Shown: positions 9,606 to 61,490 of the stretch, piece by piece
How positions within the stretch are numbered: the first letter of the stretch is position 1
How the letters are laid out: each line of letters starts with the position of its first letter
Source of the DNA: Candidatus Woesearchaeota archaeon
GTDB lineage: Archaea; Nanobdellota; Nanobdellia; Woesearchaeales; JAGVYF01
Assembly: GCA_041650315.1 (NCBI GenBank)
Contig: JBAZLJ010000001.1
Coordinates: forward strand, 280,259 to 344,258
Reading direction: 5' to 3'
Length of the DNA stretch: 64,000 nucleotides
Position numbers and translations under genes: made by a program
The notes under the pieces: model-generated
The model's input: the letters and a program-made list of their open reading frames with translations, nothing else
Database searches by the model: none
Told to the model about the DNA's origin: nothing

Positions 9606-10829
9606 ATGGCAACTAAATCAAAATCTCATAAATGTGAATTGTTAGCGCCAGCTGGAAATCGCGAAATGCTTGTTGCGGCTATTGATGCAGGATGCGATTC
9701 AGTATATTTCGGCGTGAAGTCGTTCAATATGAGAGTGAATGCCGGCAATTTCTCGGTTTCTGAACTTCCTGATGTTGTTAAATATTGTCATGCGCATAAA
9801 GTAAAAGCTTACTTGACTCTGAATTCTATCATATACGATAATGAGCTTGCTGAGCTTGATACTGTTTTGAAAGCTGCGAAATCTGCTAAGATTGATGCAA
9901 TCATATGTTGGGACATGTCTGTGCTCAGATTGGCGCAGAAATACAAATTGGATGTTCATCTTTCTACGCAGGCTTCTGTCAGTAATTTTGAAGCTGTTGA
10001 ATATTATGCGAAGTTGGGGGTTAAACGTATTATCTTGGCTAGGGAGCTATCGCTTTCACAGATTAAGTCTATAACTGACCAGATTATTAAACGTAAACTT
10101 AACGTTTCAATCGAGACTTTTGTTCACGGCGCGATGTGCGTTGCGGTTTCTGGACGTTGCTTTACATCGCAGTTTTTATTCAAGCGTTCTGCTAATCGCG
10201 GGGACTGCCTTCAACCATGCAGGCGCGCGTATAAAGTCACGGATATGGAGACTGGCGGAGAAGTAAAACTTGACAATAATTATGTCATGTCTGCTAAGGA
10301 TCTATGTGCGCTGCCATTCATTGATAAATTGAAGGATGCGGGGATATCTGCGTTTAAGATCGAGGGCAGATGCAGAAGTCCTGAATATGTGAAGGTTGTT
10401 ATTTCTGCGTATAGGAAAGCGATTGATAATGCGCTGAGTGAAGTTCAGAAGAAGGAATTGATTGCTAAGCTGAAGAGTGTATATAATCGGAAGTTTTCAT
10501 CTGGTTTCTATCTTGGTCTTCCTACAAATGATGATTTCACTGATATTTATGGAAGCGCTGCTACTTACGTTAAGGAGTATATCGGCTATGTATGCAATTT
10601 CTACAGCAAAATAAATGTGGCAGAAGTTAATATAGAATCTAACGGACTTAAGGTTGGCGATCATCTGATGATAATCGGGCCTACAACCGGTGTAAAAGAG
10701 CAGAAGCTGTCATCCATTGAGATAAACCATCACAAGATAAAATCTGCGAAAAAAGGCAGGCATATCGCTGTTAAACTGAATTTCTTAGCGAGAATCAATG
10801 ACAAAGTATTTGTGATAAGAAAAGCGTAG
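9606..10829 (+). CDS. Peptidase U32 family protein (collagenase-like; the family includes the RNA hydroxylation enzymes RlhA/TrhP)
   Basis: N-terminal ELLAPAGN...AI.AGADAVY signature and a Cys-rich central region (CVAVSGRCF...GDCLQPCRR). 407 aa. Confidence 0.75.
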   Translation: MATKSKSHKCELLAPAGNREMLVAAIDAGCDSVYFGVKSFNMRVNAGNFSVSELPDVVKYCHAHKVKAYLTLNSIIYDNELAELDTVLKAAKSAKIDAIICWDMSVLRLAQKYKLDVHLSTQASVSNFEAVEYYAKLGVKRIILARELSLSQIKSITDQIIKRKLNVSIETFVHGAMCVAVSGRCFTSQFLFKRSANRGDCLQPCRRAYKVTDMETGGEVKLDNNYVMSAKDLCALPFIDKLKDAGISAFKIEGRCRSPEYVKVVISAYRKAIDNALSEVQKKELIAKLKSVYNRKFSSGFYLGLPTNDDFTDIYGSAATYVKEYIGYVCNFYSKINVAEVNIESNGLKVGDHLMIIGPTTGVKEQKLSSIEINHHKIKSAKKGRHIAVKLNFLARINDKVFVIRKA

Positions 10830-10831
10830 AA

Positions 10832-11584
10832 CTAATAATAGGATTTAGCTTTATTCTTGACAAGCTTAACTGCTTTCTTCTTAATTGGTTTGATTTTTTT
10901 TGTTGATACTTTTGCTTTTTCTGCAACTTTCGCAATCTTAGCGACTTTCTTAGCTTTGACTTTCGCGATTATTTTTTTAACTATATTCTTCTTCACGCTT
11001 TTTTTGCTTGCGTTGACTTTCATCTTGCCTGCTTCTTTATGGATGTGAAGCTTTTTCTTTTCAGGCATCAATGGCGCAACTTCGATCTTTAAGAAGTCTT
11101 CAGCTTCTTTGATTTTGTGCTGGATCTTGATTATGTCTTGAGAATTGTCCTGCTGTTGGATAAGCGAACCGCATTCAGGGCATTTGAATTCAAAATTCAT
11201 AGCTTGCTCGAAATCCAGCCTGATACAGCCTTCAGGGCATGCGAAGAATATTGCAGAATTCTCACGTTCAAGCCTTTCTCTGAGTTTGGTGAGTCTTTCT
11301 TTCTGCAGTTTGATTGTAAGATATTTTATTTGATTAGGATTGAATGTCCAGTAATAGATGTACCAACCTTTCACTCTGTCTTTCTTTCTTATGAAATGGA
11401 CCAGATCTTGGTCAAGAAGGCGGTAGAGCATATTCCTTGTAATATTGATCTGCTCTTTCAGAATCTCAGCTATCTTAAACTCGGAAATGTTCTTCTTGTC
11501 CTTTATCGCTAGGATCAACGGAACAGTATCTTCACCGGCTACTGTGCTTATTACTTCTTCAATTAATTTGTTTGTTATCTTCAT
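10832..11584 (-). CDS. tfe: Transcription factor E alpha (TFE, TFIIE-alpha homolog) with a ~75-aa Lys/Ala-rich C-terminal extension
   Basis: Winged helix plus GWYIYYW motif, then FFACPEGCIRLDFEQAMNFEFKCPECGS zinc ribbon. The tail KKAVKLVKNKAK / AKVKAKKVAKIAKVAEKAKV is not part of canonical TFE. Confidence 0.85.
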   Translation of the reverse strand: MKITNKLIEEVISTVAGEDTVPLILAIKDKKNISEFKIAEILKEQINITRNMLYRLLDQDLVHFIRKKDRVKGWYIYYWTFNPNQIKYLTIKLQKERLTKLRERLERENSAIFFACPEGCIRLDFEQAMNFEFKCPECGSLIQQQDNSQDIIKIQHKIKEAEDFLKIEVAPLMPEKKKLHIHKEAGKMKVNASKKSVKKNIVKKIIAKVKAKKVAKIAKVAEKAKVSTKKIKPIKKKAVKLVKNKAKSYY

Positions 11585-11789
11585 TTTGCAAGCTGTTCAG
11601 TTTCATCAATAGCTCTTGATACTCTTTCTTCAAACCTTCGTAGTATTTCACTTTGCCAGCATTCAATTGGTTCTTACTGAAGTCCCAATCTAATGTAGCT
11701 AAACGAGGTTTGACTTCCGCAATCTTTGCTTTTATTGTATCTAGTTCTGGGTTCATGTTTAGACCTTCCCCTATAAGCCGATCTTTCAT
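11559..11789 (-). CDS. Hypothetical small protein (possibly starting at the internal Met, 11756)
   Basis: 76 aa ORF overlapping the TFE 5' end by 26 nt. Charged and helical. No motif recognised. Confidence 0.25.
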   Translation of the reverse strand: MKDRLIGEGLNMNPELDTIKAKIAEVKPRLATLDWDFSKNQLNAGKVKYYEGLKKEYQELLMKLNSLQNEDNKQIN

Positions 11790-11982: not shown

Positions 11983-13677
11983 ATGGAGGAATCACAAATG
12001 AAAGCGCTTAAAAACTTTTTAGTAATGGCTTTGGCCATGCTAGTGCTTGTAGTTAGTGCAAGTGCAGCGACTTCTTTGACCTTGACTGCTACACCTAGTG
12101 CAGTAACAGTTAACGAAGGTACAGAAGTAAGTATTAGTTTAACCGCAGCAAGCGGAAGTGGAGTATATGCTTACCAAATCACAGGTACAGATATCCCTGG
12201 AGTATCTAATGGAGCAATGACAAGTAATGTATTCACTTGGATCCCAGAATACCTAGAATCAGGAGTATATTTCATTAAATTCAAAGCAACTGAAGGCCCA
12301 AATGACAGCCCAGAATTGAATGTCGCAGTCACAGTCAACGATTATCAACCATTGACTATGGATGCAGATGTCTTAATCGGTGGTCCATCACAGCAAAGGA
12401 GCAATCCACATGCTGAAGATGACAGCAGAAAGACAGTATATGCTGAAAAAGTGTTCAAGATACACAACGACGGCGATTTAGACGTAGTTGTAAGCTTGGC
12501 AACCACAGCAGCATCAGAATATGATGTTACTTTGACACCAGCAACAGGTACAGCAGCAGCGGCTACAGTACCAGCTAACAGCGATCTTACTGTTACAGCA
12601 AAAGGCTTTGTCCCAAAAGACTTGCCATCATTCTTCCCAACAAGAGCTGACTATAATGATAGAAGGAATCTATTGGGCGAATTGAACGTTGCTACAACCA
12701 CATCAGGCATATCAGCATTCAAGACAAACTTGTACATGGAAGCTGAAAACCTATTGATTGCTAAGAAATTGTATGTTTCAGTTGATGGCGATGAGAACAA
12801 GGTATCAGACCTAGAAGAAATCGAAGATGTCAAACCTGACAGCGATGTAGAATTAAGAGTAATCGCTGAAAACAAATATGACAGCAACGACAATGAAGAT
12901 CTAGAGATGAACGATATCGTATTCAATGTCAGAGTAGATGACAGCGACCTAGATGTCGATGAAGACCTTGATTTCGAAGACCTCGGCGCAGAAGAAACAT
13001 CTGAAGATACTATTTCATTCCAGATGGACAGAACCGAAGTGACTGAATCAAATTACTACATGTACGCAGTATTGTCCGGCGAGGACGAGAACGGCGCAGT
13101 AATGGGTGAAAAATACACCATAGAACTTATGGTTGAAAGAAAAAGCCATGAAATCTTGGTAACAGATATCAGCATTTCACCTAGTGAACTAACATGCAAA
13201 GAAACAGCTACATTGAGATTCGATCTTGCTAATATCGGCAAGAAGAATGAAGATGAAGTGTCATTCAAAGTGGACAGCCCAGCATTGGGATTATCCAAAA
13301 TTGAATACGACATAGAGCTGGATACAAGCGATGATGTAACTAGATCAATACAAATTCCTTTGAAGAATGTTAAACCTGGCGATTATGACATCCAGATAAC
13401 TTCTTATTACAATAGGGACGATGTATCTAACGAAGAAATAGCAACATTGCACGTATCAGCATGCGCAACAACTGCACCAGTCGTGACACCAGTAGTAACT
13501 CCAGTAGTTACACCAGTCACAGGCAATACAGCAGTGCAACCACCAGTTACAATAATCCCAGAATTGGAAAGCTTCAATGATTTCCAGAACAGTACAATAT
13601 ATACTGTGCTATTGGGCGGACTTGTGCTAGTGTTGGCTATCGCATTAATAGTGTTGTTAGTCAAATTTGTCTTCTAG
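11983..13677 (+). CDS. Cell-surface protein: signal peptide, beta-rich domains, acidic region, Thr/Pro/Val linker and C-terminal TM anchor
   Basis: N-terminal hydrophobic LVMALAMLVLVVSASA. VVTPVVTPVVTPVT repeat. C-terminal LLGGLVLVLAIALIVLLV followed by stop. About 564 aa. Confidence 0.55.
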   Translation: MEESQMKALKNFLVMALAMLVLVVSASAATSLTLTATPSAVTVNEGTEVSISLTAASGSGVYAYQITGTDIPGVSNGAMTSNVFTWIPEYLESGVYFIKFKATEGPNDSPELNVAVTVNDYQPLTMDADVLIGGPSQQRSNPHAEDDSRKTVYAEKVFKIHNDGDLDVVVSLATTAASEYDVTLTPATGTAAAATVPANSDLTVTAKGFVPKDLPSFFPTRADYNDRRNLLGELNVATTTSGISAFKTNLYMEAENLLIAKKLYVSVDGDENKVSDLEEIEDVKPDSDVELRVIAENKYDSNDNEDLEMNDIVFNVRVDDSDLDVDEDLDFEDLGAEETSEDTISFQMDRTEVTESNYYMYAVLSGEDENGAVMGEKYTIELMVERKSHEILVTDISISPSELTCKETATLRFDLANIGKKNEDEVSFKVDSPALGLSKIEYDIELDTSDDVTRSIQIPLKNVKPGDYDIQITSYYNRDDVSNEEIATLHVSACATTAPVVTPVVTPVVTPVTGNTAVQPPVTIIPELESFNDFQNSTIYTVLLGGLVLVLAIALIVLLVKFVF

Positions 13678-14445: not shown

Positions 14446-14706
14446 TTAGAATAATTTTTTAAATTTGTCAAGCTCTTTCTGGAGCTCTTTTGCAGCATCT
14501 GCAATTACTTTCTTAGGTTCTTTTGATTTGGTCTCAAGTATGAATACAGGACTGCCGATAAGAGGATGGTCTATCTTATAGCTCGCTAGCTTTACATCTT
14601 CGTTGTCAGTCAATTGCTGTTTTAGAGCATTGCAGAAAGTGTGATCTTCTCCTTTGACTTCGAAAATCATCCTGGTTTTTGATTCTTCAATTACTTTGAA
14701 TTCCAT
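14446..14706 (-). CDS. rpoL: DNA-directed RNA polymerase subunit L (Rpo11)
   Basis: MEFKVIEESKTRMIFEVKGEDHTFCNALKQQL...VKLASYKIDHPL is the typical Rpo11 signature (GEDHT, HPL). 86 aa. Confidence 0.85.
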   Translation of the reverse strand: MEFKVIEESKTRMIFEVKGEDHTFCNALKQQLTDNEDVKLASYKIDHPLIGSPVFILETKSKEPKKVIADAAKELQKELDKFKKLF

Positions 14707-25904: not shown

Positions 25905-26063
25905 ATGGCAACATTCACAGTGTCAATACCTGAAGATCTAAAGAAACAGATAGATATGCACCCAGAGATAAATTGGGCGGAATACCTTAAGCAAAGATTT
26001 GAATTACGCCTTAATGAGCTTCATAGATTCGAACAGATGAAAGCTTCAGGGGGACTGAAATGA
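25905..26063 (+). CDS. Small ribbon-helix-helix protein (52 aa; not in the supplied ORF track)
   Basis: MATFTVSIPEDLKKQIDMH... has the classic RHH N-terminal strand. The stop overlaps the next start (ATGA). Confidence 0.45.
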   Translation: MATFTVSIPEDLKKQIDMHPEINWAEYLKQRFELRLNELHRFEQMKASGGLK

Positions 26064-26347
26064 CTTCTTTGACATTATCTCTTTCTGAAGAAATGAAAAA
26101 TCAGTTGAAAGCCTATTCTTGGGTAAATTGGAGCGAGATTGCTAGGGAAGAAGCTTTGAAGAAGTTGATATTCGAGAATTATCTCAAAGCGGGAACAATC
26201 ACTGATGAAGAATGGGAATTCTGCGAAAAAATGGATTGGCATCCTACTGATGAACTTCCGTTGAAAAAAGAGTTTGCTGACAAGTTGAAATCCGTCAGAA
26301 AAGAAAAATCTATTAAAGTCAAGTCAGTTTCCAACATATTCAAATGA
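26060..26347 (+). CDS. Putative antitoxin (RHH-like N-terminus) of a RelE/ParE toxin-antitoxin pair
   Basis: MTSLTLSLSEEMKNQLK... Its 3' end overlaps the toxin start (ATGA at 26344). Confidence 0.5.
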   Translation: MTSLTLSLSEEMKNQLKAYSWVNWSEIAREEALKKLIFENYLKAGTITDEEWEFCEKMDWHPTDELPLKKEFADKLKSVRKEKSIKVKSVSNIFK

Positions 26348-26613
26348 ATTATGCATTGGAAATAAAACCTTCTTGCCAGGATCAAATTCGTAAATTGTGC
26401 AGGAAGAATGCTTCTTTTGAACTAATCTTGAAGAAAAAGATTGAAGAGATATTATCTGATCCATATCATTTCAAGCCGTTGAGGTATGGTCTTGCTGGAG
26501 AAAGAAGGGTGCATATCATGAAAAGTTTTGTTCTTAAATATGAAATTGATGAGTCTAGAAAGATAGTCACTTTGCTGTTCTTCGGACATCATGATGATGC
26601 TTATCAGAGATAA
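26344..26613 (+). CDS. RelE/ParE-family type II toxin
   Basis: KPLRYGLAGERRVHIMKSFVLKYEIDESRKIVTLLFFGHHDDAY matches the RelE/ParE consensus (L.G.L.G.R..HI...YRiiY.id....i.iL.igHR.d.Y). Confidence 0.7.
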   Translation: MNYALEIKPSCQDQIRKLCRKNASFELILKKKIEEILSDPYHFKPLRYGLAGERRVHIMKSFVLKYEIDESRKIVTLLFFGHHDDAYQR

Positions 26614-60963: not shown

Positions 60964-61170
60964 CTATTCTTTGATGATGTCGATGCAGTTAACTGGGCAG
61001 ACTTCTTTAGCTTCCTGATTCTTGCCGATATTGTCTAGCACGAGTTTTTTTGGTTTCGCTTTATACATTCCGCCTTCTTCTGCAAGCTCCCAATTCTCTG
61101 GACACTGGACTGTGCATGCTCCGCAACCAATGCACTCATCTTTTTTGAAAATGATTTTGTATTTAGTCAT
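60964..61170 (-). CDS. 4Fe-4S ferredoxin
   Basis: CIGCGACTVQCP ... C...CPVNC gives two cluster-binding Cys groups. 68 aa. Confidence 0.75.
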   Translation of the reverse strand: MTKYKIIFKKDECIGCGACTVQCPENWELAEEGGMYKAKPKKLVLDNIGKNQEAKEVCPVNCIDIIKE

Positions 61171-61490
61171 TCTTCTTCCTCATCTTCGCTGTCTTCAGAG
61201 TCTGAATCCTCATCGTATTCTTTTTTATCGGATTCATGCTCAATAAGTTCGTTTATCTCGTCAACCATCTCTTTGATCTCTTCGCCGTTCATACCATGAC
61301 CCATACAGCCTTGCTCTATTGTCTCTGTGTATGCGACATGGCAACCAATGCAGTGTAGTCCGTACTTGAGCATGACCATTGCTGCGCCGGGATGCTTTTC
61401 CAGCACTGCGCCGAAAGTCATTTCTTTTGTTACTGGCTTAGGTTTTTCTGGTTCTTTTGCAGATGGTTTCTTGTTCATAGGGTATAGCAA
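61167..61490 (-). CDS. DUF1858-like (hybrid-cluster-protein-associated redox disulfide) protein with an acidic tail
   Basis: MTFGAVLEKHPGAAMVMLKYGLHCIGCHVAYTETIEQG fits the DUF1858 pattern with CxxC. C-terminal DEDSDSEDSEDEEEE. Confidence 0.5.
   Translation of the reverse strand: MLYPMNKKPSAKEPEKPKPVTKEMTFGAVLEKHPGAAMVMLKYGLHCIGCHVAYTETIEQGCMGHGMNGEEIKEMVDEINELIEHESDKKEYDEDSDSEDSEDEEEE

Follow-up and report, generated by a model that had tools for sequence, protein, structure and literature searches.

A long lysine-rich C-terminal tail on the transcription initiation factor TFE-alpha of a Woesearchaeota archaeon

The TFE-alpha gene and its surroundings

The minus strand of the 64-kb window (the whole stretch of 64,000 nucleotides that was analysed) carries a complete gene for TFE-alpha at 10832..11584, which the ORF list gives as a single complete reading frame of 250 codons followed by a TAG stop at 10832-10834. 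TFE/TFIIE is a universal initiation factor of archaea and eukaryotes. The N-terminal part of the protein is the extended winged helix with its linker helix alpha5 (aa 6-109; 11258..11569), matched by Pfam PF02002 at E 3.9e-14 with 52.8 bits (cutoff 22.9), over positions 1-104 of the 105 in the profile. A zinc-ribbon domain (aa 113-147; 11144..11248) follows, which gives weak zinc-ribbon Pfam matches and can be aligned to the zinc ribbon of Thermococcus kodakarensis TFE from the PDB. The core closes with a C-terminal helix in the AlphaFold model (aa 148-169; 11078..11143). A short Pro-containing linker (aa 170-175, the VAPLMPE region; 11060..11077), recognised in the alignment and by a fall in AlphaFold pLDDT from 84 to 52, leads into a lysine-rich tail that is predicted to be disordered (aa 176-250; 10835..11059) and starts 6 residues beyond the helix. 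All of these features lie on the minus strand. The preliminary description of this DNA, made from the letters alone, had placed the extension at 10832-11060, which is indeed the tail plus its stop codon, and the two peptides it quoted, AKVKAKKVAKIAKVAEKAKV and KKKAVKLVKNKAK, are found at aa 207-226 and aa 235-247.

The two core motifs on which that description relied are also present. The wing motif GWYIYYW occupies aa 73-79, with G73, W74, Y75, Y77, Y78 and W79 invariant in a 42-sequence homologue alignment, and zinc is liganded by C116, C120, C135 and C138 (CPEGC...CPECG), all of them invariant in the same alignment. In NCBIfam, the TFE equivalogs are the top matches and cover almost their entire model length (aa 5-168). 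They miss their cutoffs (NF004910, 143 bits vs 180; TIGR00373, 135.6 vs 149.5), a shortfall that fits a divergent DPANN orthologue and leaves the Pfam and fold evidence uncontradicted. The best match in a PDB sequence search is T. kodakarensis TFE-alpha (6kf4_G, E 3e-30, aa 4-178), followed by Pyrococcus furiosus TFE-alpha (6pln_A, E 4e-26). We built an AlphaFold model of the 250-aa protein on the 42-sequence alignment; pLDDT is about 90 over aa 1-170, and helices and strands follow each other in the order known from TFE. Foldseek against the PDB again ranks 6kf4_G first (E 1.5e-12, target-normalised TM 0.78 over 162 columns), with yeast and human TFIIE-alpha chains next. Because Pfam, NCBIfam, PDB, the invariant motifs, AlphaFold and Foldseek agree, we assign the core to TFE-alpha; by its domain, its zinc ribbon and its fold, the 250-aa protein is a member of this family.

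Immediately upstream, a small ORF of 76 aa (65 aa if read from Met12) at 11559..11789 (minus strand) overlaps the start of the TFE gene by 26 nt and is probably co-transcribed with it. It matches no Pfam or NCBIfam family, and its PDB matches are weak and coiled-coil-like. It is conserved ahead of TFE in four other loci (L081-L084) and, at a distance of about 200 nt, in four more (L004, L007, L008 and L079); the TFE genes at all of these loci bear tails, and the small protein may be a co-translated partner or a mere clade marker. On the other side, a convergent U32-family gene (9606-10829, plus strand), TrhP/UbiU-like with scores below the cutoffs, ends with its stop 2 nt from that of TFE. Further neighbours include a putative S-layer protein of PACE-CTERM type (11983-13677, plus strand), and the order methyltransferase, Rpo11-like protein (14446-14706 in the window), AMMECR1, surface protein, TFE and U32 is conserved in locus L083. 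Farther away, at 26060-26613 (plus strand), lies what is probably a type II toxin-antitoxin pair: a 95-aa ORF that belongs to no family, overlapped by the ParE-family toxin gene that follows it (26344-26613; E 3.5e-7). Scans of the whole 64-kb window for tRNA genes and for Rfam families at gathering threshold gave no match.

Composition, coding and selection of the tail

The tail (aa 176-250) contains 30 Lys, no Arg, no Asp and 2 Glu, which gives it a net charge of +28 and a pI of 10.7, whereas the core (aa 1-175) has a net charge of +1. AlphaFold assigns it a pLDDT below 50 throughout, the one exception being a weak, low-confidence helix at 202-223. This richness in lysine is not a proteome-wide habit within the 64-kb window: in density of K+R the TFE protein is the extreme of all 61 ORFs, with 14 of 30 residues against 12 in the runner-up. 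This extreme value and the recurrence of such tails in many homologues make chance an inadequate explanation. Elsewhere in the window, a DUF1858 protein (61167-61478, minus strand; E 1e-16) ends in a strongly acidic run of Asp, Glu and Ser, ...DSDSEDSEDEEEE, and is thus an opposite-charge counterpart of the TFE tail.

The preliminary description saw repeats in the tail, which proves to be an overstatement. Tandem Repeats Finder detects none in its DNA, and the direct matches are short (11-19 nt), imperfect and weak; the tail is a compositional bias rather than a repeat array, and on these same results we rejected a recent origin by slippage or from tandem repeats. An amphipathic helix of the membrane or coiled-coil kind was likewise rejected, since the maximum hydrophobic moment of 0.54 is matched by 22% of shuffled sequences. 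We found no conserved short motif in the tails across the 42-sequence homologue alignment. The sole recurrent non-basic element that we noticed is an aromatic ending after the Lys stretch in several tails of the clade (KSYY, NSYYK, RGYY), seen in the window protein (10835-10843, minus strand) and in the homologues P0001, P0006, P0007 and P0009.

The extension had also been called histone-H1-like. Linker histone H1 has a C-terminal domain of about 33% Ala, 13% Pro and 40% Lys. The tail shares with it a lysine content of about 40%, predicted disorder and a presumed electrostatic mode of DNA binding. It differs in having 13% Ala, 3% Pro and 21% Val+Ile, and it contains no S/TPKK-type motif (SPKK or TPKK). 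The GH1 globular domain (PF00538) gives no Pfam match to the window protein at E <= 1, and bacterial H1-like or HU-type nucleoid proteins (Hc1, AlgP, HU) are not matched in Pfam or NCBIfam either. On these sequence comparisons, the resemblance to H1 is a compositional analogy and not homology; the likeness in lysine stands, and the rest of the label does not.

An A-rich stretch of low complexity is prone to sequencing errors, which is the sole ground for suspecting that the tail is an artefact of sequencing or assembly, or the product of a frameshift or a mis-called stop codon. We compared the gene with those encoding a 98%-identical protein (P0001) in two independent assemblies, JGI 3300014208 and ENA ERZ27249449 (loci L081 and L082), which share the same neighbourhood of small upstream ORF, TFE and convergent U32-family gene. 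The window gene differs from them by 45 nucleotides and no indel; dS is about 0.31-0.32 in core and tail alike, and dN/dS rises from 0.015 in the core to 0.086 in the tail. Read in the TFE frame, the changed codons of the tail fall into 11 synonymous and 5 nonsynonymous ones. The two other forward frames contain many stop codons. Equivalent tails occur in dozens of diverged homologues, and no hidden K-rich frame lies downstream of the stop in tail-less loci, which also rules out that the gene has merely been split in these relatives. Because two assemblies keep the 250-aa frame without indels and the tail has a dN/dS of 0.086, we exclude the frameshift that the preliminary description had named as a danger, and we give an artefact of any of these kinds practically no chance. 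Pfam, NCBIfam, PDB and the dN/dS of the tail uphold the claim that this TFE-alpha has a genuine Lys-rich extension, read in frame, at its C-terminus. We also rejected an ORF antisense to the tail (10857-11048, plus strand; 63 aa, Phe/Leu-rich and transmembrane-looking) as a mirror of the AAA and AAG Lys codons; it is not a gene, because its changed codons are 7 synonymous and 8 nonsynonymous.

By these codon comparisons, the tail is translated and is held by a purifying selection weaker than that on the core. In relatives at 85% and 75% core identity, it gains indels and many replacements and remains basic. What selection preserves seems to be the charge and the length class, not the sequence.

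Basic tails among TFE homologues

We scored a C-terminal extension as a basic tail if it comprised at least 20 aa, with at least 30% K+R and a net charge of at least +0.2 per residue. The family search returned 1471 homologues, and those with names are Woesearchaeota. Among the nearest 120 clusters at 90% identity, 44 have a basic tail (median 59 aa, maximum 119), and so do 17 of the 80 nearest GTDB species representatives, which carry Woesearchaeota or Nanoarchaeota labels or generic placeholder names. A wider sample was drawn by HMMER from 1.84 billion proteins: among the best 150 representatives of 50%-identity clusters, 146 have a full core, 95 are extended by at least 20 aa and 85 bear a basic tail of up to 249 aa, a fraction that is probably inflated if, as we assume, representatives tend to be the longest members of their clusters. 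The named distant clusters with tails are Nanoarchaeota or Woesearchaeota. In the two nearer samples, all long extensions (44 and 17) are of basic character, without an acidic one among them. The distribution of tail lengths has two modes, at 0-5 aa and at 22-119 aa, and tail-less homologues terminate at the C-terminal helix, 27-33 aa past the second Cys knuckle. In a core phylogeny built by neighbour joining, tailed forms group together, and parsimony needs about 9 changes for its 119 tips. By these counts and this tree, the tail is heritable, widespread and typical of the lineage in Woesearchaeota/DPANN. Because most close relatives are without it (76 of 120 nearest clusters, 63 of 80 GTDB representatives), it is also dispensable for TFE function in this lineage.

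The tail-less relatives still finish in 2-5 Lys or Arg, and their cores are more basic. Mean core charge in the nearest set is +9.1 for tail-less and +5.6 for tail-bearing proteins, and the overall means (P0001-P0270 and L001-L080) are +8.4 and +4.4, both comparisons ignoring kinship. The surplus sits in alpha5 and at the extreme C-terminus. In the GTDB set, the difference is weaker and non-significant (p = 0.095). The basic ends and the more basic cores of tail-less relatives suggest that total charge is what matters.

How far mutation pressure alone could account for such tails has to be weighed here. Tail-bearing loci have a lower GC content than tail-less ones (0.34 vs 0.39, p = 0.01, kinship ignored), and AT-biased mutation probably helps to create the tails. 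A nearly neutral, low-complexity by-product, in which AT bias and Lys codons extend the C-terminus and the resulting disorder is tolerated without a dedicated role, would agree with this difference, with the highly variable length (22-249 aa) and sequence, with the repeated gain and loss on the tree and with the absence of the tail from most relatives. K/R-rich appendages moreover occur on other Woesearchaeota proteins. A protein of about 192 aa that adjoins tail-less TFE genes has about 30 additional, K/R-rich residues at its N-terminus, for example MAKKTKKSKKKEKSTKRRKK... (all on the minus strand: L002 416-994, L018 151-738, L033 830-1411, L044, L072 and L078 504-1091), and small membrane proteins with K-rich C-termini are encoded at L014, L021, L022 and L025; because of these two groups, polycationic appendages can be said to recur in this lineage. 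Against a neutral origin stand the 75 tail codons kept without an indel at a dS of 0.31 and a dN/dS of 0.086, the lack of any repeat or slippage signature in the DNA, with a mixed Lys codon usage of 19 AAA to 11 AAG, and the near exclusion of acidic residues, together with the uniformly basic character of the long extensions in the two nearer samples. Tails persist in loci from 25% up to 53% GC, and no other ORF in the 64-kb window carries such a tail. We regard a mere by-product as unlikely, although it is the alternative that we take most seriously.

Known basic tails and a proposed role

Archaeal TFE-alpha is known to carry a positively charged C-terminal tail of 16 residues, which could not be traced by cryo-EM (Jun et al. 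2020, PMC7704642), and the sequences deposited in the PDB end in ...KKKPRKTSKKK for Thermococcus and ...KPKKATRRKK for Pyrococcus. The window protein resembles these TFE-alphas (6kf4/6kf9 and 6pln) in having an extended winged helix, alpha5, zinc ribbon and C-terminal helix in the same order and a basic disordered tail directly after the last helix; in both cases, TFE-alpha is monomeric and comes from a lineage reported to be without TFE-beta (PMC7289017). In Thermococcus, a bundle of two helices separates the winged helix from the zinc ribbon (PMC7704642). The differences lie in the length of the tail (75 aa with a net charge of +28 here; T. kodakarensis has 16 aa, P. furiosus about 25), in the zinc site (Cys4 here, Cys3His in T. 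kodakarensis; PMC7704642) and in a core identity of merely about 34%. With the model as a guide, the tail fits the described basic tail in position, charge and predicted disorder, at roughly five times its length. The TFEs of other metagenome-assembled Woesearchaeota and Nanoarchaeota, such as P0004 (J4418_01825), P0131 (MBL7100861.1) and P0215 (MBU1203928.1), have homologous cores of 35-98% identity and a K/R-rich extension of 22-249 aa in the same position, with tail sequences that cannot be aligned beyond close relatives. The preliminary description had held that such an extension is not a feature of described TFEs. This is right in part: the 16-residue tail and the PDB sequences speak against it, and for the long form our full-text literature searches turned up no paper that reports Lys-rich tails of such a size in the TFEs of DPANN archaea. 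The tail is a long variant of a known basic tail, apparently undescribed at such a length.

What such a tail might do is suggested by its place in the model, where the C-terminal helix 148-169 folds back antiparallel along alpha5 (aa 83-110). This helix would head from the zinc ribbon back to the winged helix, and from its antiparallel course we infer that the tail should exit near the winged helix and promoter DNA; in Thermococcus, the wing of TFE contacts the non-template strand at about -9 (PMC7704642). The tail is probably a non-specific polycationic DNA tether adjoining the promoter-contacting wing, a role that the preliminary description had also suggested and a reading that we hold with moderate confidence. 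The factor consists of the single-subunit TFE-alpha core of a Woesearchaeota-type (DPANN) archaeon and a 75-residue polycationic tail of predicted intrinsic disorder, the latter a lineage-typical, lengthened form of the short positively charged tail of Thermococcus. A tail charge of roughly +28 could bind the DNA backbone in a sequence-independent and salt-sensitive manner; such tethering would keep more TFE locally at the DNA and aid its recruitment or retention. The same charge might stabilise the pre-initiation and open complexes electrostatically in a lineage whose TFE works without a TFE-beta partner. Several observations speak against a tether: most close relatives manage without the tail, it changes quickly in both sequence and length (indels appear by 85% core identity), tail-bearing loci are lower in GC, and the short tail was untraceable in the Thermococcus RNAP-TFE-DNA complex, so that an ordered contact with DNA was not visible there (PMC7704642).

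The target need not be DNA. The tail could instead engage nascent RNA close to the stalk of RNAP or the acidic surface of a protein, or self-associate into condensates, or it could be a substrate for regulation of the Lys-acetylation type. Polycationic disordered tails are generically promiscuous and bind to RNA and to acidic proteins no less readily than to DNA, and 75 disordered residues would reach far past the core, whose zinc ribbon docks, in the Thermococcus complex, on the RNA-binding stalk subunit RpoE (PMC7704642). No conserved short motif points to a specific partner, and the lack of amphipathic periodicity noted above argues in the same direction. We think that a target other than DNA is quite improbable.

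A further explanation sees in the tail a compensatory module that replaces a missing TFE-beta or missing histones and Alba. TFE-beta is reported to be absent from DPANN, and monomeric TFE-alpha suffices where TFE-beta is lacking (Fouqueau et al. 2018, PMC7289017). The eukaryotic counterpart of TFE-beta bears DNA-binding regions, and Thermococcus, the other described case of a basic-tailed TFE-alpha, likewise works without TFE-beta (PMC7704642, PMC7289017). The tail-less majority of Woesearchaeota TFEs, however, would equally be without TFE-beta, so that its absence does not predict a tail. The chromatin version had been proposed in the preliminary description. In the 64-kb window, a part of the genome too small to prove any gene absent, phmmer found no histone, Alba, Sul7d, MC1 or second TFE. 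Against this, histones and Alba are both listed as present in Woesearchaeota (Henneman et al. 2018, PMC6136690), and tail-bearing and tail-less TFEs coexist within one lineage. Compensation in either form is very unlikely in our judgement, and the chromatin proposal is not borne out.

The comparison with eukaryotic TFIIE bears on the same question. The core fold is that of TFIIE-alpha, and chains from yeast and human pre-initiation complexes match the window protein at E 1e-8 to 1e-6. TFIIE-beta has a basic C-terminal region. Eukaryotic TFIIE-alpha continues into an acidic C-terminal region that is lacking in archaeal TFE-alpha (PMC4495717). The extension described here is opposite in charge to that acidic alpha C-terminus, and a beta subunit is not to be expected in DPANN. 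A bolder proposal would be that the long tail makes TFE-alpha a DNA-coating, self-tethering factor in a large share of DPANN, supplying the contribution to DNA binding that TFE-beta or TFIIE-beta makes elsewhere. We consider it rather unlikely; if it were true, the lower core charge of tail-bearing TFEs would reflect selection on total DNA affinity, and a step of initiation universal to archaea and eukaryotes would have been rewired in a lineage-specific way.

These proteins provide a natural series of tail lengths for probing what the tail does, for instance in DNA tethering, promoter search or open-complex stability. In many DPANN lineages, the tail is 3 to 15 times as long as the short one of Thermococcus and is under purifying selection, and archaea with reduced genomes and no TFE-beta may tune initiation through it. 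The advance is incremental and of interest to those who work on archaeal transcription; the system is not of a new kind.

For genome annotation, the consequence is that TFE extensions are real and not gene-calling errors. The preliminary description had considered that the extension might prove common and already annotated; it is common in all three samples, but it is not annotated as such, the tail-bearing records reading merely 'hypothetical protein' or 'TFIIE (subunit) alpha' and leaving the tail unmarked. Many records of an 'uncultured Methanosarcinales archaeon' in the GTDB set (TPA assemblies; loci L004, L006-L008, L014, L017-L019 and others) encode a Woesearchaeota-type TFE with 58-63% identity to the window protein, and the name given to the organism is apparently a placeholder or mistaken.
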